This document shows, piece by piece, positions 347-8,970 of a stretch of DNA of 31,023 nt. Both the position numbers and the translations under genes were made by a program. The notes below the pieces were generated by a model. The model made no database searches, had not been told where the DNA came from, and worked only from the letters and a program-made list of their open reading frames with translations. The stretch's first letter is position 1. Each line of letters starts with the position of its first letter. The stretch is from an uncultured virus (IMG/VR IMGVR_UViG_3300011725_000001) (taxonomy: Duplodnaviria > Heunggongvirae > Uroviricota > Caudoviricetes). Location of the stretch: positions 62,001 to 93,023 of IMG/VR virus record IMGVR_UViG_3300011725_000001, one strand, 5' to 3'.

Positions 347-1636
347 ATGACTTCTCAAAATGTTCTCAAGCAGCTGCAGAAACTCCCTGAATGCCCCGTT
401 GACGATGAAGTACTTCACCAGACGTTTGTAACGGCCTATGGCCAGCTGAGTTCTATGCGCAAACGCCTGAAACTCGACGATCTTGAAAAGCGCCTGCTGG
501 ACAACTGCCTGTCTGCGCTGGAGCAGGTGCAGATTGATATCAACCTGCGCCTTAACCACGAAGCTGATACCTATAACGTGCTGGCAGATGCGCTGGAGCA
601 CGTCCAGCAGGAGCTGGACGGCCATTCCGTGCTGGCCGCAGAGATAGCTCAGATTCGCCTTGAGGCGAAGAACGCCGCTGATGAAGCCATTCAGGAAGCC
701 CGTATTCGTGAAGGTGAGGCCGAAAATCGCGCTATCAATGCTGAAAACGCCCGTGATCGCAACGCAGATGCGCTGGTTACCGCTCAGCTGGCGCTGACCA
801 CTCTGAATCAGGAATTTACACACTACCGCCGCAAGAATCCTGAACGCCTGGCGTCGGATCTGCAGGAGCGCGACAAAACCATTTCTCAGCACCGCGCCGA
901 CCGAAAAAAGCAGAGCGCACTGATACAGGAACTGCAGCAGAAGCTGAATATTGCAGATAAAGAAGTGGGTAAAGAGCGTCGCCTGCGAGGTGAGACGGCC
1001 AACGATCTCATTAAACTCACTGCCTCGCACAATCATTTGAAAGAGCGCGTGGAGTTTCACGACGGGCAGGAAGATGTGGCGCAATTCCTGCTGCAGCTGC
1101 CGGACGGCAGCGGTGACGTGGGCTGCTATATCTATAACTTCCACTTCGGGCTTAGCGTGTTTCACGGCATCCGTGACGTGTCCATTGAGACGGCAAATTT
1201 CCACTACCAGATCCGCACGGCGATGATGCTGGCAATGGACGTGGTGCCGGGTATATGGGGCAATCCGGTGTTCCGCATCCTGCCTGATTTACTCCCTATG
1301 TGGGACACGGCCATCAACGACGAACTGCATGAGCGCATCATGACCCGCCTGGCGCTGGACTTCCCACGACTCCACAAGCGCATCATGGACGGTAAGGCCG
1401 CGCCGGTCTCCGAGCTCGCTATCCCGGCGCGTGCGCTTAACGCGCTGGTAAAAGCCGGTTATGACACGGTGGCGGCTGTGGGCGGTGAGCTACCGCCGGA
1501 ACTGGTGAAGGTCAAAGGGCTAAGCGAGGCCACGGTAGACGAGATCCGCGCTGCTGTTAACAGCTGGTGCATTGCCTGGTCAAAAACCAATGGCGACATT
1601 GAAAACCTCAAAAACCCAAATACCAGACGTCGTTAA
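347..1636 (+). CDS. pmgS: P1 PmgS-like protein (coiled coil with C-terminal HhH/alpha-CTD-like domain)
   Basis: 429 aa; N-terminal DDLEKRLLDN...NHEADTYNVLADA and C-terminal AWSKTNG resemble recalled P1 PmgS; position upstream of lpa fits. Confidence 0.75.
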   Translation: MTSQNVLKQLQKLPECPVDDEVLHQTFVTAYGQLSSMRKRLKLDDLEKRLLDNCLSALEQVQIDINLRLNHEADTYNVLADALEHVQQELDGHSVLAAEIAQIRLEAKNAADEAIQEARIREGEAENRAINAENARDRNADALVTAQLALTTLNQEFTHYRRKNPERLASDLQERDKTISQHRADRKKQSALIQELQQKLNIADKEVGKERRLRGETANDLIKLTASHNHLKERVEFHDGQEDVAQFLLQLPDGSGDVGCYIYNFHFGLSVFHGIRDVSIETANFHYQIRTAMMLAMDVVPGIWGNPVFRILPDLLPMWDTAINDELHERIMTRLALDFPRLHKRIMDGKAAPVSELAIPARALNALVKAGYDTVAAVGGELPPELVKVKGLSEATVDEIRAAVNSWCIAWSKTNGDIENLKNPNTRRR

Positions 1637-1661
1637 GGGCCAAAAAGCTGCCTGAAATAAA

Positions 1662-1678
1662 CACATACATTTCTAAAA
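1662..1678 (+). promoter_or_regulatory. candidate C1-type operator
   Basis: CACATACATTTCTAAAA, just upstream of the promoter at 1696. Confidence 0.6.
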
Positions 1679-1695
1679 TACAGAGCCATTTTTAA

Positions 1696-1724
1696 TTGAT
1701 TTTTTCCGTATTTTTGTGTACATT
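1696..1724 (+). promoter_or_regulatory. sigma70-type promoter for the ncRNA array
   Basis: TTGATT(1696-1701)-17 bp-TACATT(1719-1724). Confidence 0.55.
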
Positions 1725-1860
1725 TCTTCTCGCTGTAACATCGTGTCTTTAAAAATTTAGTGCAATCAGGCTGGACGGTAACATTTTGTTTAGCCTGTCT
1801 TTTTCCCCTCTCTAAAGCGCATTTTGTGAGTGCGCTTTATATTGGTTGGTAACATTTAAT

Positions 1861-1886
1861 GCCCGATAGTTTTCGGGCTTTTTTTT
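1861..1886 (+). terminator. Rho-independent terminator
   Basis: GCCCGA-TAGTTT-TCGGGC followed by T8. Confidence 0.75.
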
Positions 1887-2061
1887 CAGGTTTAACCGTG
1901 AGCGCATGAGGTGTGCTCACGGCTAAATCGGAGAGAGGATTCAGCAGCGAGGCAGACGCAATGCAAATCTGGCAGGGGTGGTTCTTCCCTTTTGTTTCGC
2001 AAGCGGACAGGTTGACCAGACGCCTAAGTGTCCGCGCCGGGTATGCACCGGCACTAATTCA

Positions 2062-2134
2062 GCATGGGTAGCGAAGAGGCCGAACGCAGAAGTTGTTAAG
2101 TCCGCCGCCGGTTCAAATCCGGCCCCATGCACCA
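2062..2134 (+). tRNA. tRNA-like RNA / pseudo-tRNA with shrunken, poorly paired anticodon arm
   Basis: Acceptor GCATGGG/CCCATGC, D-arm GCG...CGC, T-arm GCCGG-TTCAAAT-CCGGC, ends ACCA; only 19 nt between the D and T arms. Confidence 0.75.
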
Positions 2135-2306
2135 GTTCGTAACAGGCCGCCCCCGGTAGTCTCCAGATTTTCCGGGTGTGTTATGAGTAGGGTGAACGGC
2201 ATGTAGCCCCTCCTGTCACGGCAGTGAACGCGGTTTTGGACTATCCCGCGCATAGAACGCCCCGTGAGGCTTAAACAAGTTCCCGCCTGATCCCCGTAAG
2301 GGATCG

Positions 2307-2383
2307 CCATTTGTGAGCGTGCTGGCATCCTCTTGCTGCCTGGCGACGGGTGTAACTACCTCTGACAGCACGCTCACAAATGG
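2307..2383 (+). repeat. perfect 18-bp inverted repeat (long RNA stem)
   Basis: CCATTTGTGAGCGTGCTG (2307-2324) / CAGCACGCTCACAAATGG (2366-2383). Confidence 0.85.
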
Positions 2384-2496
2384 GGGAATGCGGCTATGCG
2401 CACGCGGGGCGGAACTCAGATATATACTCTTGGTAACTGTTCAATATCCCCGTCCGTAGGTTCCGTATCGGACAGCTGGAGGCACCAGCCCCCCAT
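2380..2496 (+). ncRNA. tRNA-shaped structured RNA
   Basis: Closing stem ATGGGGG/CCCCCAT, 5' hairpin GCGG-CTATGCG-CACGC, two internal stems, 3' hairpin GCTGG-AGGCA-CCAGC stacked on the closing stem. Confidence 0.6.
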
Positions 2497-2609
2497 GCAT
2501 TACACGCCAACACCGGGCGACGCGCTGCTTACTGGCTAATTTGGCTGCTGGCAGGGCAAGGTCAGCGGCAGACCTCAAAAAAGTTCGTGACAGCCGGGAA
2601 AGACCGGCA

Positions 2610-2688
2610 CACAACGGTGAGAGCACTGGGCGGAGACTGGTAAAGGCTCCGTTATCCGGGCAGGGAGTCAGTGCTCTCAGCCGTTGTG
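2610..2688 (+). repeat. 19-bp stem with one bulge (RNase III-type substrate candidate)
   Basis: CACAACGG-TGAGAGCACTG / CAGTGCTCTCA-G-CCGTTGTG; related stems at 3137-3177 and 3539-3577. Confidence 0.75.
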
Positions 2689-2857
2689 GTGATTGCTTTA
2701 ACACACCGTAGGAGTTGTGGAGTCAATCCACGGGGCGAAAGCCCTGCCGGCGAATCGACGCCGGCGGTCAGCGATGGGCTGCGAAGGCAAAGCGGGTATC
2801 ACTCCCGCCTCATTGAACAATCGCGCTAACGGAAACCGATCACAGCAACGCGTTTAT

Positions 2858-2941
2858 GGTGATGTAGCTCAGGGGAATGAGCGTCCGGCTTTAACTCAGG
2901 AGTACGGAAGGTCGCTGGTTCAAATCCAGCCGTCACTGCCA
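2858..2941 (+). tRNA. tRNA-like RNA with expanded anticodon arm (84 nt); isotype not assignable
   Basis: Acceptor GGTGATG/CGTCACT, TA-GCTC...GAGC D-arm, TCCG...CGGA enclosing 17 nt, AGGTC variable loop, GCTGG-TTCAAAT-CCAGC, ends GCCA. Confidence 0.8.
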
Positions 2942-3176
2942 GTTTCAGTACAGACCAGTTGCATTGGAGACAGCATCCCTAACAGACAGGACACGATATG
3001 CCGTTTTTAGCGTTTGCTGCAGAGCATCCAGGCCTCACCATCATTTACACGCTGGTGATCATTTACGGCTTTGAAACGGTTATTAAAGCCTGTCGCAGCG
3101 ACGCGAAGAAAAAGCGCCGCAAATAGCACGACACCCCAACAGGAAAGCGCATTAGCCGCTCAGTGCTCTCTCCGTT

Positions 3177-3317
3177 GTGGTGCATTCGCAGTTGCTGCTG
3201 CGATCGCAAGACTGGCCCCCGCTTCATCAATCGCACCGCATAGGGGTTTAAGCCGCCAGTAACCGAGTTGACCAGTCGCTTGAGAGGTTACTTGCCGGGT
3301 ATGGCACCGGCCACCAC
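3177..3317 (+). ncRNA. tRNA-shaped structured RNA
   Basis: GTGGTG/CACCAC closing stem, TCGCAG/CTGCGA 5' hairpin, large internal stems, GCCGG-GTATGGCA-CCGGC 3' hairpin. Confidence 0.6.
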
Positions 3318-3366
3318 TAACGCATAACAGATACGCACGCATAAGCGCTGACATGAAAATTCAGGC

Positions 3367-3531
3367 ATGATTAAAGCAATTCAGTCAGTTAATCAGGGTT
3401 TAAGCAGTATGGACACCAGCATGTACACCAAAACAGTCAGAGCGATGCAGTTTGTCATGTTTCATCTGCTGCTGAATGCCGGACTGTTTGCCGGTCATAA
3501 ATGGCTAATCGCACAGCTGGTGGCCAGCTGA
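3367..3531 (+). CDS. possible small hydrophobic protein (54 aa)
   Basis: Hand-translated MIKAIQSVNQ...FVMFHLLLNAGLFAGHKWLIAQLVAS; fills the gap between two RNA elements. Confidence 0.35.
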   Translation: MIKAIQSVNQGLSSMDTSMYTKTVRAMQFVMFHLLLNAGLFAGHKWLIAQLVAS

Positions 3532-3575
3532 TACAGGCCAACAGGTAAGAGCACCGGCAGACGGGCTTTTATCGT

Positions 3576-3676
3576 TGTGTTGAAGCTCAGCGGCAGCAGC
3601 GTTCGCTCTTTTATTCGGCCTGCAGGGCGGTGAAAGGGACAAGCGAAAGGTCGCCAGTTCATATCCGGCCAGCACA
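3576..3676 (+). ncRNA. tRNA-like RNA with a long hairpin replacing the anticodon arm
   Basis: Acceptor TGTGTTG/CAGCACA, D-like AAGCTCAGCGGCAGCAGC, TTCGCT...AGCGAA extended stem, AGGTC, GCCAG-TTCATAT-CCGGC; no encoded CCA. Confidence 0.6.
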
Positions 3677-3817
3677 ATGCCTACATAGCCACCCGGCCAG
3701 TCGCCGGGACAGGCCTCAGAACATCCCCGTGCGCACCCGGCGCCGGAATTAATCAGGTGAATTTTAATCACCGGCAATCGCCGGGGATTCTGCACGCCTG
3801 CACGACAGAGAGAGAGC

Positions 3818-4069
3818 ATGAAAAAGATCGCACTGATGGGCGCATTAATGGGAAGTCTCACCTGGCTGGCGCGCCGGCCGCCAACCGTTCCCGTGCTGCA
3901 GGTCAGGTCGCTGCAGCTGCCGGACCGCCCACAGCTGACCGCCGAGGACGGAATACAGCGTCTGGCCACCAGCATGGAAGAAGCGCATCAGCACCGCGAA
4001 CGTGAACGGCAGACCGCGCAGAAGCGCAGGCAGAGCGCCCACAAGCGCAAAATCAAACGGGGTTACTAA
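3818..4069 (+). CDS. hypothetical protein (basic C-terminus)
   Basis: 83 aa, GAGAG upstream, stop 2 nt before the next ATG. Confidence 0.6.
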   Translation: MKKIALMGALMGSLTWLARRPPTVPVLQVRSLQLPDRPQLTAEDGIQRLATSMEEAHQHRERERQTAQKRRQSAHKRKIKRGY

Positions 4070-4071
4070 GG

Positions 4072-4650
4072 ATGAACGATCAACAAATAAACGGAATGGT
4101 TGGCATGATTGCCGGCGCTGCAGGCAACTATACCGGTGACTATATGGCGCTGCTGAACGTTCTGGAGCACCTGGGCTTTGTGGTAACGCACCAGTCACAG
4201 ACCGCAACAGACTGGTCAGCCACGGTGAGCAAAGGCGCACTGACCATGACCGCCCGCGGGGAATCGCTTAATCATGCTGCCTGTCTGGCCATGCTGAAGC
4301 TGAACGATCTGATCCTGCGCAACGAGCAGCTGATAGACGAGGGCATGCTGAAATTCAGGGAAGAGGGCGCGCCGATAGCCGTCGCGCATGTGTGGCTCTC
4401 TGACGGCGCAAAAGTGGCACGTAAAGCGTGGGGAGAGGGAACACATCTGCGCCTCAACAGAGGCACCACACGGCACCCGCTAAACGGCACCGATATGTAC
4501 GGCGTGCCGGCGCGATTCTTTGACCACGATCCGCAGGCGTCCGTAACGCGTATGCCTCAGTTCGTTCTGACCAATACTGAGCAGCTGACAACGGCTGACT
4601 GGACGCCCGTAACCGCCGATCTGCTGGCAAGCGACTGGAGACTGATTTAG
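4072..4650 (+). CDS. phage ABA-sandwich-like domain fused to a DUF2829/Tad2-like domain
   Basis: C-terminal GAKVARKAW...WTPVTADLLASDW fits the DUF2829 pattern; N-terminal YTGD...WSA...ARGESLNHAACLAMLK fits the ABA-sandwich pattern. Confidence 0.7.
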   Translation: MNDQQINGMVGMIAGAAGNYTGDYMALLNVLEHLGFVVTHQSQTATDWSATVSKGALTMTARGESLNHAACLAMLKLNDLILRNEQLIDEGMLKFREEGAPIAVAHVWLSDGAKVARKAWGEGTHLRLNRGTTRHPLNGTDMYGVPARFFDHDPQASVTRMPQFVLTNTEQLTTADWTPVTADLLASDWRLI

Positions 4651-5209: not shown

Positions 5210-5923
5210 TTGGCTGAAGACACCCATGCTCCTCGTCAACCTATACAAGACCTCCTCGGCGCGTTACACGATAAGTTTGGTCACAACTTAAAAGAAGCTG
5301 TTGATGTTTCAACGGCACCTCTTTTAGAAGAGATAGATCTTAATTCCAGAATAATTGGTGCCTTTCAAGCTGCACTTATTAAAGAATACAAAGAAGACGC
5401 TCATAAAACAGGATGTGCTGAAATACTTGATGAGGTTTTCAGTGACTTTGCAATTGCAATGTACCTTAATTCAATCGGCCTTATTGTTCCGGCGCGAATG
5501 TCTACAAGGAGAGCGTTTGAGCTTGGACTTTCTGTCGTATACATGTGGGATATGCCACAGGAATACTGGGGTTGGAAAAAATGCGATCAAGATTTAAGTT
5601 TCTCTGCAATGGTTTCACACTTGAATTCTTTAGGTTATTGCGAATATATGCAGCAATTAAGCAAAGGGTCGCGAAATTCATGCTTTTGCGATCAAACAAC
5701 TTTTCAAAGGCTTTATAGAATTCTTAGTAATACTGTTCACGGTAAATTTGCCGATCTACCGGCATTGGCACCGGAGCGATTTTCAACAATTTCAAATGGA
5801 CTATTAGATCATCTACAGCTAATCGTCGAGACTCAGAAAGCTGTTATATCTTTACTTTTTGGCCGTTTCTCCGAGCTTGAGCAAAAAATTTGCACTATAT
5901 TTCCTCAAATCAAAAGGAATTAA
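5210..5923 (+). CDS. HEPN-like helical protein (putative RNase effector)
   Basis: TTG start after TAAGG; motifs RRAFE and LYRILSNTVHG fit the R..E / Y..LS..VH pattern of divergent HEPN families. Confidence 0.6.
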   Translation: MAEDTHAPRQPIQDLLGALHDKFGHNLKEAVDVSTAPLLEEIDLNSRIIGAFQAALIKEYKEDAHKTGCAEILDEVFSDFAIAMYLNSIGLIVPARMSTRRAFELGLSVVYMWDMPQEYWGWKKCDQDLSFSAMVSHLNSLGYCEYMQQLSKGSRNSCFCDQTTFQRLYRILSNTVHGKFADLPALAPERFSTISNGLLDHLQLIVETQKAVISLLFGRFSELEQKICTIFPQIKRN

Positions 5924-5927
5924 ATGT

Positions 5928-7688
5928 ATGATCATACAAACCACAACATCAAACCTGAGCGGAGAAGATCTCCTGCAAACAGCAAGATGTGAAGACTTGT
6001 TATACGACCAAATAAAGATGGTATCAGTATTAGGTGATTTTGAAAGGCGCATTATTGACTCGTTGAAAGGGAGTGGTGCCAACCTGCTTGAAGGTGCCCG
6101 AGGTGTTGGAAAATCTATGCTACTCCGCATGGCGGAAATTGAGTTAGACAAAGAATTTCCTGCAGATAAAAAACTTGGAGTCTATGTAAATTTCAAAACC
6201 AGTACTTTACTTGAAGGTGTTAAGGCTGATGAACGTGATGCTTTTCAGATTTGGGTTAATATAAAAATTTTAGAAGCCTTGCACGAAAAAATGCTTACAT
6301 TAAATCTAATTGCAAAAACTGGAGTAGCTGACCCATATCAGCGAGTTTTTGGGGTATCTTCCGTACTCGAAACAAAAGCAATGCTTGAAGAGAAAATCCA
6401 TTTGCTTCAAAAGTTGGCTTTTAGTAGAAATTCACATGCCGAAATTCTTGACCAAATAGGTGAAGATTTTCTAGCAAAAGCCCAAGACACCAGCTTTTTG
6501 GTGAATATAATAAAAGATATAGCGAATTTATTTTCACTTAAAAAAATAATTTTCTTTTTTGACGAGGCAGCTCATACTTTCATTCCTACCCAACAAAATA
6601 TTTTCTTCGAAATATTCAAGCTGTTGCACGGAGGTATGGTTGCCTGCAAAGCAGCAGTTTATCCAACAGTAACTAATTACGGTCGCAATTTTGAAGTTGG
6701 TCAAGATGCAATAGTTTTACCAGCAGTTAGATTCGATCCTGGTGAGTCTGGGCGTCGTGAGAATCGATTGCATTTTCGCTCGATTCTTGATAAGCGCTTA
6801 CCGAAGACAAGCAATTTAAGGAAAAAAATGTTCACAAGGGGCGCGGAGCTTGATCTTTGTATTGATCTCTCAAACGGTAACCCGAGAGCACTCCTACATA
6901 TATTGAATAGCGCGTTATCCAGTAATGCTTCACTATCAGAACGCTCAGTGGGATTAGCAGTCCAGAACTATGTTGATCAGGCATTAATTCCATATCATCA
7001 AAGTCTTTCCAAAAGACTTCCTAAGTACTCATCACATATTAGAGTTGGACTAGATTTATTGAGAGGTTATATCATTCCAGAAGTAAGGACAAAGAATCAC
7101 AGGAAGACAAAGAGTGAGTATCAGTCGGTGTTTTTTACACTGCAACGTGATATGTCGCCTAATTTAAAACTTTCTTTAGATATTCTAAGCTATTCAGGTA
7201 TGGTATCTCAACTTGGAACTGTTAAAATAGCTAACGGAACAGGGCCTCGATATATGATTAACCTAGCTATGATGGCTACTGAAAAAGGATTTGACACTCC
7301 AAAAACTTCAGATGCTATAGCTAGATTAAGCCTTACTGATTACCGTGAATTCTCATCGTCAGATACACAGATAAAAACTTATCTGGATTCACTCTTATTG
7401 CCGACTGAGACCTGTTCACAATGTAATGCTCCACTTCAGCAAAATGCGAAATTTTGTAGTGAATGTGGGAATAAAATTACTGAAGTTTCCATAGTTAGTA
7501 CTTTGCTTGAAGAGTCTATTAGTGAGTTATCAATAAGCGAACGATTGAAAGAAAGAATTCGACCAAAATTTTCCACTGTTGGATCGATAGTTCAAGCAAA
7601 GAGAGATGAACTTATGGCAATCTCTTATATTAAGGATGTTCGTTCAAGGATCATAAAGAATGCAGCTGATGAATTCATTTCCGGCTAA
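5928..7688 (+). CDS. ORC/CDC6- or STAND-like P-loop ATPase with C-terminal zinc ribbon and HhH (alpha-CTD-like) domain
   Basis: Walker A GARGVGKS, Walker B FFFDE, SNGNPR helix, CSQC...CSEC, terminal SISELSISERL...ELMAISYI; ATG 4 nt after the upstream stop. Confidence 0.8.
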   Translation: MIIQTTTSNLSGEDLLQTARCEDLLYDQIKMVSVLGDFERRIIDSLKGSGANLLEGARGVGKSMLLRMAEIELDKEFPADKKLGVYVNFKTSTLLEGVKADERDAFQIWVNIKILEALHEKMLTLNLIAKTGVADPYQRVFGVSSVLETKAMLEEKIHLLQKLAFSRNSHAEILDQIGEDFLAKAQDTSFLVNIIKDIANLFSLKKIIFFFDEAAHTFIPTQQNIFFEIFKLLHGGMVACKAAVYPTVTNYGRNFEVGQDAIVLPAVRFDPGESGRRENRLHFRSILDKRLPKTSNLRKKMFTRGAELDLCIDLSNGNPRALLHILNSALSSNASLSERSVGLAVQNYVDQALIPYHQSLSKRLPKYSSHIRVGLDLLRGYIIPEVRTKNHRKTKSEYQSVFFTLQRDMSPNLKLSLDILSYSGMVSQLGTVKIANGTGPRYMINLAMMATEKGFDTPKTSDAIARLSLTDYREFSSSDTQIKTYLDSLLLPTETCSQCNAPLQQNAKFCSECGNKITEVSIVSTLLEESISELSISERLKERIRPKFSTVGSIVQAKRDELMAISYIKDVRSRIIKNAADEFISG

Positions 7689-7800: not shown

Positions 7801-8522
7801 AATATATCAAATTAATTACTAGCTAATTTGCAAATACCTGCACCTTTAATTATCAATCTTTATTTGTCTAAATTGGCAATTTTAGATAGGATGATGGTTG
7901 CCTGACAGTCTTTATTTCCATCGTTTCAAATATATTCAAGGCAGCTAACCCGCCGATTCGATGCATGCAATGTCCGCTTCTGGCACATAGCGGACGTTAT
8001 GTCCGCGTCTCATATTTTACCGATGCTAAGTTCATAAACTAAGCAAGGTTTACGGGGCAAAGGGTAAGTTTGATTACAGCGTGAATATGAGTAAGTCAGG
8101 CACGACGGAAGGATTACGGTTTGAGGATGAAGCCGGGGAGCCGTTGCCGGATAACCTTTACAGCCAGGTTGTCCACCGCTTAGCCCGTGACACTGTAACA
8201 AACTGGTCGAACACTGTCAGCCACCTGCTGAAAAGCTACCGCTGATCTGGATGGGCTGGCCGAACCAGCCCTGAATACAGGTTTCTAAAACAGTCTTTAG
8301 GGAACGCATACCCCAAAGTAGAAAAATTCAATTTTAGCTGGTACTAATTTTAGATAATTCACTCCGCGCAGAACTATTTACGCTCTGCTTCACGCCCCCG
8401 TAACAGCCCTTAACCTTAACCAAACTTAATCCAGCCAGACTGGCATAAATTCATAGCACGATGAAAATCTGAATGGGAAAACTCTAAAATGCGCGTTTTG
8501 TAATCCACGCAAAATTAACATC

Positions 8523-8562: not shown

Positions 8563-8970
8563 ATGGTCAAAAAGGTGAGCAGTATAGAGGTGGCGGATCT
8601 GCTGGTTCGCTATCGTGATTATATGACGGTAGCAGAGGTTACCCGGCTGGTGGAAGCAAAGTACCCGCACTTATTAGTCAATCCCGGTATCATCACTAAT
8701 ATTCTGCGCTCTTTTGTCCGCTCTCCGTTTGCGCAATGCTGCGTACACCCTGACGCTTATCCACGTCAGTACCGCCTGGATGCGTTAAAAGGCTACACCT
8801 TCAAAGCGCGCGGCCGCCCGGACATTGACTACGATTCGCTGATTGTTACCAGCGCCACGAAGCGCCGCCTCCAGTCAAAGGAAATGGAGCTACGTTCTGT
8901 ATGCGTAATGGCAAGGGAACTGATGGACAGGTGTATGCGGGGAAGGATAGAAAACACCCCGCTCATGTGA
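8563..8970 (+). CDS. lpa: late promoter activator Lpa homolog
   Basis: SIEVA...KYPHL...PRQY...VMAREL resembles recalled P1 Lpa; GGAG RBS; upstream of pacA. Confidence 0.75.
   Translation: MVKKVSSIEVADLLVRYRDYMTVAEVTRLVEAKYPHLLVNPGIITNILRSFVRSPFAQCCVHPDAYPRQYRLDALKGYTFKARGRPDIDYDSLIVTSATKRRLQSKEMELRSVCVMARELMDRCMRGRIENTPLM

Follow-up and report, generated by a model that had tools for sequence, protein, structure and literature searches.

The tRNA genes of phages are usually seen as decoders and, lately, also as replacements for tRNAs destroyed by host immunity. RNAs that have the form of a tRNA, or of part of one, and do not decode are known from other settings. The t-elements of plant mitochondria are described, in passages of PMC5499578, as degenerate tRNAs, some without an anticodon arm, that direct the cleavage of mRNA ends by RNase P and RNase Z; the reference list of that paper includes the RNase P processing of the C4 RNA of P1/P7 and of the P4 immunity RNA. 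YrlA is a non-decoding RNA with T and D arms; in mycobacteria RNase P cuts it and CCA is added, and likely Y RNAs are reported close to Ro60 in over 250 species of bacteria and phages (parts of PMC4201824). The tRNA-like domain of transfer-messenger RNA (tmRNA) is, in portions of two accounts, the "upper half" of a tRNA without an anticodon (PMC3929946, PMC3985003). Here we analyse a stretch of 31,023 nucleotides (nt), the window, which is positions 62,001 to 93,023 of the IMG/VR record IMGVR_UViG_3300011725_000001, and within it an island of about 2 kb (1696-3680) in which a preliminary description had seen a polycistronic array of five tRNA-shaped RNAs, here A to E. The comparisons support the view that these elements are non-decoding tRNA-shaped RNAs kept by selection. 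The island is the Pantoea version of the tRNA slot that P1/D6-like phage-plasmids carry between pmgS and a Tad2-like gene, and it shows a third fate of phage tRNAs, in which the decoding part is lost and the part read by processing enzymes is kept under selection.

All five elements are present where they had been described; the array is richer than that description had it and its setting is different, so that the original observation stands in part. The five are as follows.

2062-2134, plus strand: element A, tRNA-like, with a 7-bp acceptor, a class-II-type D arm, a canonical T arm and A73-CCA
2380-2496, plus strand: element B, a tRNA-shaped RNA closed by a 7-bp stem, followed by AAU, a D-like hairpin, an inner arm that is hypervariable, one more hairpin and a T-like hairpin
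2858-2941, plus strand: element C, tRNA-like, 84 nt, with a 7-bp acceptor ending in G73-CCA, a D arm and a T arm of canonical form
3177-3317, plus strand: element D, a tRNA-shaped RNA with the closing stem GUGGUG/CACCAC, the D-like hairpin CGCAG/CUGCG and inner arms
3576-3676, plus strand: element E, tRNA-like, with a 7-bp acceptor, a 3-bp D stem and a T arm, without CCA

Elements A, C and E are tRNA-derived: acceptor, D and T arms are kept, the T loop being of the UUCRANY type, and the anticodon arm is deleted in A, where about 18 nt fill the space of the anticodon and variable arms, seems to be remodelled in C and has grown in E. The Rfam tRNA model (RF00005, gathering score 29 bits) matches A at 2062-2131 with 40.9 bits and C at 2858-2938 with 50.2 bits, and these are its only matches in the whole 93-kb record. 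B and D have no match, and the window's own E is not listed at E<=10. Orthologues of the first and fifth elements in relatives score 44-49 bits at the odd lengths of 61 and 102 nt (45.9 bits for the E of relative L001). For comparison, 63 of the 64 chromosomal tRNA-model matches in a Pantoea genome with a related plasmid score 48-79 bits, and the two on the plasmid score 40.9 and 31.1. A 19-nt T-arm word occurs three times in the array, at 2106, 2913 and 3652.

Thirteen distinct sequences of A fall into one 73-nt allele, which is that of the window, and two 64-nt alleles, and these have been exchanged between near-identical flanks. Between the D and T arms there are 18 nt in the long allele and 11 in the short, and the normal 5-bp anticodon stem with a 7-nt loop is absent. 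The 64-nt allele aligns with the tRNA-Thr(UGU) of phage D6 in acceptor, D arm, variable loop and T arm, a clean gap of 12 nt falling at the anticodon stem-loop, and the 73-nt allele has the acceptor and class-II-type D arm of an 86-nt tRNA-like gene that a Leclercia plasmid (L055) carries. Because their likenesses lie with these two different genes, the alleles are unrelated tRNA derivatives, both without an anticodon arm and both with A73-CCA. The acceptor is paired in 91 of 91 cells of the 13 sequences, with changes on both sides at positions 4, 6 and 7. Compensatory changes are also found within alleles, C6-G67 having become U6-A67 in the short allele and C50-G64 having become U-A in the long one. 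These pairs were counted by script on anchored ends, since MAFFT misplaces the 5' acceptor strand across the alleles.

Element E is found in all relatives and has a 53-nt expanded arm where the anticodon arm belongs. Its consensus is a cloverleaf with a 53-nt bent helix as the "anticodon arm", in which five of the 31 pairs are compensatory, all of them in the expanded arm. Each acceptor pair is kept in 15 of 15 sequences (105 of 105 cells, wobble pairs counted), and the T arm resembles that of the tRNA-CAT of D6. The middle of C folds, at lowest energy, into a single extended arm of 25 nt; all known copies of this element are near-identical. The earlier statements that none of the elements is a normal decoding tRNA and that their decay is not random are borne out by the comparative stems, the arm-less alleles of A and the conservation of the modules.

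Elements B and D are tRNA-shaped RNAs from families shared with phage D6, and not tRNA genes. B-type copies (17 distinct) occur in Pantoea plasmids, in D6, which has two, and in Shigella, E. marmotae, Enterobacter and Leclercia plasmids. In a 15-row alignment the five-helix structure of B has 92.8% of its cells paired against 75.2% in shuffles, none of 500 shuffles reaching the observed value, and slid controls pair in 34-49% of cells; 14 of the 24 pairs show compensatory changes. The T-like hairpin of the window's copy, GCUGG-AGGCA-CCAGC, stacks on the closing stem, and in general the 7-bp closing stem and the stacked 5-bp hairpin NNNGG-AGGCA-CCNNN make twelve pairs, the length of the acceptor/T helix of a tRNA. 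One of the D6 copies matches the prophage small RNA (sRNA) STnc100 (RF02076) with 39.6 bits (E 1.5e-7), missing the gathering score of 47, and the layout of the STnc100 consensus (model positions 31-147) is shared by 15 B-type copies. Kinship of B with STnc100 is what these comparisons point to, with the D6 copy below the gathering score; the window's B has no match in Rfam, STnc100 included, at E<=10. The idea of a scaffold displaying variable modules, offered in the preliminary description, fits B well, its core being invariant and its inner arm hypervariable. Element D has the T-like hairpin GCCGG-GUAUGGCA-CCGGC and is 91% identical to its divergent relatives, with a D6 copy at 8511-8656 of L049. 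Its closing, D-like and T-like stems are near-invariant, and by eye compensation is seen only in one divergent copy from a Shigella plasmid.

Beyond these five, the island holds at least five more conserved RNA modules (P, Q, R, X and long hairpins).

1957-2061, plus strand: module P, with a stem at 2003-2035 whose loop holds GUUGACCAGACGCCUAAG and the T-like hairpin GCCGG-GUAUGCA-CCGGC (2036-2052)
2135-2306, plus strand: module Q, a structured RNA that is not tRNA-shaped, 91% identical to divergent relatives
2307-2383, plus strand: long hairpin with 21-nt arms and a variable tip (inverted repeat I2), its 3' arm overlapping the 5' strand of B
2497-2607, plus strand: module R, with hairpins that include the D-arm-like GGUC-AGCGGCA-GACC and GCCGG-GAAAGA-CCGGC (repeat D6)
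2610-2688, plus strand: long hairpin CACAACGG...CCGUUGUG ahead of X, with alifold support and three compensatory pairs, a candidate double-strand cleavage site
2689-2848, plus strand: module X, a multi-helix RNA with a GAAA loop and, by eye, a hairpin like a decayed T arm
3535-3580, plus strand: hairpin ahead of E, read from the sequence, overlapping the 5' strand of the E acceptor, with the same arrangement in D6

Module P is a paralogue of the 3' half of D (direct repeat D3), has alifold support and finds an nhmmer match in an Enterobacter plasmid (L054); P and D have in common an 18-nt loop word, GUUGACCAGNCGC..AG, that also occurs in an Enterobacter plasmid. For Q there is no matching Rfam family, and nhmmer finds copies in Enterobacter (L054, 5620-5795) and Leclercia (L055, 1456-1616) with 109 and 104 bits; eight of its 48 pairs are compensatory. 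In X, which is 88% identical, two of the 45 predicted pairs are compensatory, and the hairpin at 2307-2383 has a compensatory pair at 2320/2370. A second copy of the 3' arm of the 2610-2688 hairpin lies at 3156-3179 (repeat I1). Hairpins with arms of about 20 nt and CACAACGG/CCGUUGUG bases precede X, D and E, and they overlap the 5' strands of D and E. The notion that the whole island is one giant RNA was rejected, as the order of modules varies between lineages; for the same reason we regard the modules as independent units.

An alignment of 21 distinct versions of the intergenic region allowed identities to be taken against 12 divergent relatives. Modules P, Q, B, X and D are 84-91% identical, compared with 74% for pmgS and 68% for the Tad2-like gene. 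Conservation is patchy, invariant cores alternating with hairpin tips of 36-45% identity, which argues against a recent sweep. Over 1887-2856, alifold predicts 281 pairs, of which 22 have compensatory double changes. Single-sequence measures say less: folding z-scores run from -0.2 to -2.7 and are uninformative, and the geometry of an acceptor with an adjacent T hairpin is found six times against 5.0 +/- 2.4 in shuffles. As this is the chance level, the bare acceptor/T-hairpin shape was dropped as a criterion. The Rfam scores, the threefold T-arm word of 19 nt and the comparative evidence do exceed chance.

Arm-less tRNA-like elements also occur in unrelated viruses. A search of IMG/VR for a tRNA D arm, a linker of 4-16 nt and a T arm returned 73 places, which reduce to 55 distinct elements; 48 of the 55 lie outside the Pantoea family. 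A perfect 7-bp acceptor is present in 34 of these 48, spread over 32 different sequences; a control in which the 3' strand was shifted by five bases gives 0 of 72. The Rfam tRNA model matches 18 of the 20 loci scanned, with 33-54 bits over 56-59 nt, and the sole printed alignment has an empty anticodon arm. The unrelated elements (loci L107-L234) are about 58 nt long, and 28 of 46 lie between two open reading frames (ORFs) of the same strand. Their place is often between late genes of high expression; in T7-like contigs they separate the scaffold gene from the major capsid gene, or the capsid gene from that of the tail tube. At one locus (L140, 202-239) an abiF RNA motif, with 39.9 bits and above the cut-off, adjoins such an element. 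The open-access full-text literature yielded no paper that describes such elements in phages, and most subscription journals lie outside its coverage.

The window takes up the final 31 kb of the viral record, which is 93,023 bp long and has terminal repeats. Positions 1600-3800 match six non-mobilizable plasmids of about 90 kb with 80-96% identity, five of them from Pantoea and one labelled Acinetobacter, and no DNA match to the stretch was found in the phage collection, in near or distant mode. The genes and the leader that border the island are these.

347-1636, plus strand: PmgS-like head-morphogenesis gene (phrog_1660, 1.2e-93; Pfam RNA_pol_A_CTD), the upstream border
3681-3817, plus strand: region S, a hairpin-rich leader ahead of the next genes
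3818-4650, plus strand: an 83-aa ORF and the Tad2-like gene (4072-4650; PF11195, 5.4e-11), the downstream border

The protein of 347-1636 is 30.7% identical to the PmgS-like protein of D6, and the RefSeq orthologue of 4072-4650 carries the name Thoeris anti-defense Tad2 family protein. Because of the plasmid matches, the PmgS-like gene upstream and the Tad2-like domain downstream, the window is best described as a D6/P1-like phage-plasmid, as had been guessed. The array had been placed directly upstream of the Tad2-like gene; that gene does lie downstream, but the 83-aa ORF intervenes. The plasmid labelled Acinetobacter (CP060164.1, L004) is 96% identical to the Pantoea plasmids over the compared stretch and is deposited as Acinetobacter venetianus; the label looks doubtful, or the element crossed orders. 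Farther into the window, the 609-aa product of 5859-7688 combines an ATPase region of the ORC/CDC6 kind with a zinc ribbon at its C-terminus and may be the replication initiator.

In phage D6, as in the D6-like plasmids of E. coli, Shigella and E. marmotae, the tRNA slot is filled with canonical tRNAs: those for Asn or Arg, Tyr and Thr, a Ser-like one and a CAT one, with 58-75 bits where scored (D6). Cargo of the tciA/tciB or SPFH kind lies between these tRNAs in D6 and D6-like plasmids, and in a Citrobacter relative the slot is missing entirely. In the 21 distinct Pantoea-type relatives no canonical tRNA is called in the slot, ARAGORN giving only an odd "Stop" (tta) and a "Phe" (gaa at position 28). 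Intact tRNAs at the same place in close relatives had been named as the sign of simple pseudogenisation; this sign is seen in part, since canonical tRNAs occur in the distant D6-like relatives (Asn/Arg, Tyr, Thr, Ser, Ile/Met-CAT) and the short allele of A is a tRNA-Thr with a deletion, but none is called in the Pantoea type.

Several features of the D6 slot (L049) deserve mention in their own right. At 8661-8747 stands an 87-nt "tRNA-Ser" that scores best on the tRNA-Sec model (43.1 bits, under the cut-off) and may be an unusual, allo-tRNA-like serine tRNA; sequences like it are annotated as tRNA-Ser in some large Escherichia phages (FFH2, LL12). Between this gene and the STnc100-like module, 65 nt (8772-8836) are 98.5% identical to lambda at about 44.9 kb, apparently a mosaic fragment common to lambdoid phages. 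An orphan T-arm word, GGTTCGAATCC, lies within a long hairpin just after tRNA-Thr (8196-8290) and recurs at a similar offset after tRNA-Thr in the E. coli/Shigella-type D6-like plasmids L051 (about 6850) and L052 (about 6786); the site may be another tRNA relic.

The remaining features of the stretch concern its transcription and its small genes.

1652-1679, plus strand: sigma-70-like promoter match, weak (9 of 12 positions), one found against 1.4 expected
1767-1886, plus strand: three terminator-like hairpins, the last being GCCCGATAGTTTTCGGGC followed by T8
2998-3126, plus strand: orf42, a tiny hydrophobic protein ending in KKKRRK, third-position excess 216 against 132 and 92
3409-3531, plus strand: orf54, probably 40 aa from Met15, third-position excess 213 against 88 and 119

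The array had been placed behind one promoter and operator, and this part of the description is not confirmed. The sole sigma-70-like site is at chance level and three terminator-like hairpins lie between it and the array, so transcription of the array from 1652-1679 is unproven. A C1-operator-like word at 1673-1689 was considered as a member of an operator family and rejected, because it occurs once in the window. The last terminator-like hairpin (1857-1896, a GC stem and eight T) is 83-85% identical across the 21 relatives. Within 1680-1886 the body is poorly conserved (41%) and 1717-1736 and the last terminator are conserved; this segment is possibly a separate small RNA of about 200 nt, or an attenuator ahead of the array.

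The stretch had also been called nearly ORF-free, which holds in that none of its 14 mechanical ORFs matches Pfam, but the two tiny genes are real. Both are annotated as coding sequences in relatives, orf54 with 123 nt. The frame of orf42 is intact in 15 of 15 distinct sequences, and by eye the gene is like a small ORF that precedes tRNA-CAT in D6; the N-terminal part of orf54 has a stop in one relative. The layout is X-C-orf42-D-orf54-E-orf83-Tad2-like, with C ending 57 nt before orf42, D between orf42 and orf54, and E between orf54 and orf83, so that tRNA-shaped modules bracket every small gene of the stretch. Cargo insertions in the relatives (TerB with DUF3927, SPFH and others) lie before 2852, 2966, 3130 and 3327/3339, that is, at or near the ends of modules or genes.

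The acceptor, T arm, D arm and RCCA are the part of a tRNA that is read by RNase P, RNase Z and the CCA enzyme. What the island keeps is the acceptor, T and D arms, plus RCCA in A and C, with the anticodon arm free to vanish or grow. Since the kept parts are those that processing enzymes read, and since the modules bracket small genes, the reading that we tentatively favour, at somewhat less than an even chance, is that the tRNA-shaped modules are cut-and-stabilise signals for RNase P and RNase Z, like the t-elements of plant mitochondria, interleaved with tRNA-shaped sRNAs. The decoding tRNAs of an ancestral cluster have given way, by conversion or by substitution, to tRNA "top halves" made up of acceptor, T arm and D arm (the elbow). 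RNase P would cut at the 5' side of the modules, and RNase Z or RNase E at the 3' side. A long transcript could in this way be divided into separate RNAs and mini-mRNAs, each end capped by a stable fold like that of a tRNA. Further cleavage, of double strands, would take place in the 20-bp hairpins that precede X, D and E. The STnc100-like B, together with D, Q and X, would probably be released as stable RNAs and may act in trans, a mode of action proposed for PasD, a relative of STnc100. The comparisons show the tRNA ancestry, the folds, the selection, the order of the modules and their bracketing of genes, whereas the single precursor transcript, its cleavage by RNase P and RNase Z and any action in trans are steps that we infer.

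Several observations weigh against this tRNA punctuation. Element C is limited to the close group of the window and is missing from most relatives, and E has damaging mutations in some relatives and in the window, whose copy carries two T-arm changes, one breaking a T-stem pair and neither present in the three closest distinct relatives; individual modules are for these reasons dispensable. The T stem of A is paired in 62 of 65 cells and broken in three. Among the 48 unrelated elements only three encode CCA. A pure processing role leaves the strong sequence conservation of Q, D and X unexplained, and in D the near-invariance of the stems makes the signal ambiguous, so that its conservation could reflect sequence rather than fold. 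No promoter above the chance level was found, and terminator-like hairpins lie ahead of the array. Finally, among the public sequencing runs that contain the stretch, none is on record as RNA; four guessed to be RNA hold only 11 short contig pieces at depths of 2-26, two of them "probably DNA", and are silent on expression.

An alternative that we consider unlikely is that B, D and perhaps P are trans-acting regulators of the STnc100/PasD kind, in which a tRNA-like frame gives stability and defined ends and the variable inner arm or the conserved loop pairs with targets. The STnc100 match and shared layout of the D6 copy of B, the hypervariable inner arm of B inside its invariant frame and the loop word common to P, D and an Enterobacter plasmid speak for it, as does PasD, a structural relative of STnc100 credited with a predicted seed and with targets from RNA interaction by ligation and sequencing (RIL-seq) in parts of a preprint (bioRxiv 10.64898/2026.05.13.724894). 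However, the window's B has no Rfam match and the D6 copy stays under the gathering score, the function of STnc100 itself is not established according to a portion of PMC12370729, and complements of the P/D loop in a Pantoea genome do not exceed the control (six matches at 2-3 mismatches, one of them the plasmid's own, against two for the reversed word); A, C and E would also be left unexplained. Rather less probable still is that the top halves are decoys or inhibitors, which would bind immune effectors of the host or of rival phages that read the acceptor end or elbow, such as nucleases cutting tRNA tails or acceptor stems or enzymes modifying the CCA end, and so spare the real tRNAs. Different relatives do carry different decoding tRNAs in the slot, CCA is encoded in A and C, the alleles of A are swapped between near-identical flanks as in an arms race, and there are anti-defence neighbours, the Tad2-like gene downstream and, in D6, darB/ulx upstream. 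In the literature, phage tRNAs that counter PARIS and a retron effector appear in sections of PMC11464382 and PMC11555353, and the cutting of tRNA tails by immune nucleases, and of tRNAs by bacterial Schlafen nucleases, in sections of PMC12851939 and PMC13056530. Such decoys would, however, compete with the whole cellular tRNA pool unless they bound far more tightly, elements without an anticodon could not distract anticodon nucleases, and the unrelated elements of the same build rarely encode CCA and in many cases lie inside structural-gene operons, where a processing role is better suited. Equally doubtful, in our view, is a broader form of this idea, that top-half tRNAs are widely encoded by phages as a distinct, unnamed RNA class. 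In the island they would be more than cut marks, either tight-binding mimics that block effectors of tRNA-directed immunity which read the elbow or acceptor end, or chargeable carriers that bring an amino acid to a non-ribosomal reaction; as active molecules of this kind they would make the allele swapping at A the record of an arms race.

Plain decay, with A, C and E as dead tRNA genes and the conservation due to a recent spread of the segment, is very unlikely. The short allele of A is indeed a simple 12-nt deletion of tRNA-Thr, C is missing from most relatives, the window's E has its two T-arm mutations, other copies have T-stem breaks, and E at 73% identity is no better conserved than the flanking genes. 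Yet the acceptors of A and E are intact, each allele of A has acquired compensatory changes since the deletion, E has five compensatory pairs in its expanded arm, the same type of lesion is found in two unrelated alleles of A, and the same build occurs in 48 unrelated viral sequences with covarying acceptors. Stems that are intact and compensated, in a build that recurs, are hard to reconcile with decay. We think it highly improbable that C is a working ochre-suppressor tRNA related to tRNA-Ser. The sole ARAGORN call in the window is this element (2858-2941), as "tRNA-Stop", with the anticodon tta (UUA) read in the loop CUUUAAC of an alternative fold, and the Ser-like tRNA of D6, with the loop CUUGAAA, has a comparable place after the D-type module of D6. 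C also carries G73, G2-C71 and C11-G24, which we take to be serine identity elements, and is closest to tRNA-Ser when A, C and E are compared with the tRNA set of a Pantoea host, a comparison of the ends only and for that reason weak. The anticodon stem of that fold, however, is poor, a mismatch and two G-U pairs standing among its five positions, the variable region of 12-13 nt has no proper arm, the lowest-energy fold is the single extended arm, the known copies are near-identical and without covariation, and the phage genes read normally with the standard code. Hardly any weight can be given to the proposal that the conserved blocks act as DNA, be it to anchor recombination for cargo exchange, as relics of attachment sites or as an origin. 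The differing cargo at or near the ends of modules or genes and the shuffled order of modules would suit it, but the stems are maintained on one strand by compensatory substitutions, the acceptor stems have both their halves, which relics of attachment sites do not, and the repeat scan saw no iterons or tandem repeats.

The interpretation put forward in the preliminary description is thus supported in part, for selected non-decoding tRNA-shaped RNAs and not for the promoter and operator. If tRNA punctuation is confirmed in phages, it would supply a simple rule for transcript boundaries in their genomes, explain many "pseudo-tRNA" calls and offer a structural rationale for STnc100-type prophage RNAs as tRNA-shaped RNAs.

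Of the YrlA RNAs, there is no Rfam match (RF02553) in the window and no TROVE/Ro60 gene in either of the two records searched (the phage-plasmid's own and a Pantoea host genome), although two control genomes gave matches, and the idea of a Y RNA was rejected on these grounds. With the tRNA-like domain of tmRNA the elements share the upper half of a tRNA without an anticodon, but ARAGORN and Rfam find no tmRNA and the elements lack G3-U70, a tag reading frame and a ring of pseudoknots. The stable RNAs of phage T4 (species 1 and 2) are a possible analogue. With STnc100 and PasD a layout is shared, the Rfam consensus and the B-type copies having a 7-bp closing stem, AAU, a hairpin and inner arms, with a hairpin ..GGAGGCACC.. 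stacked on the closing stem; unlike STnc100, B is covered only over positions 31-147 of a 206-position model and lies in the tRNA slot of a phage-plasmid rather than in a lambdoid prophage. The tRNA cluster of P1/D6 (tRNA-Asn, -Thr, -Ile/Met-CAT and tciA/tciB) has the same slot between pmgS and the Tad2-like gene and lpa, and shares B- and D-type modules with the island, and some Pantoea relatives carry cargo of the tciA/tciB type (TerB, DUF3927). The difference is in the tRNAs themselves, D6 and the E. coli plasmids having canonical decoders at 58-75 bits and the Pantoea record having none, its sole tRNA-model matches, of 40.9 and 50.2 bits, being without a normal anticodon arm. Compared with the t-elements, the island belongs to a bacterial phage-plasmid and not to an organelle, its cleavage is only inferred, its modules are interleaved with other structured RNAs, and E, B and D carry large extra arms. 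Like the t-elements, however, its degenerate tRNAs keep a mimic of the acceptor and T arm with another arm lost or degraded and, by position only, stand at the ends of genes, those of orf42, orf54 and the genes that follow.

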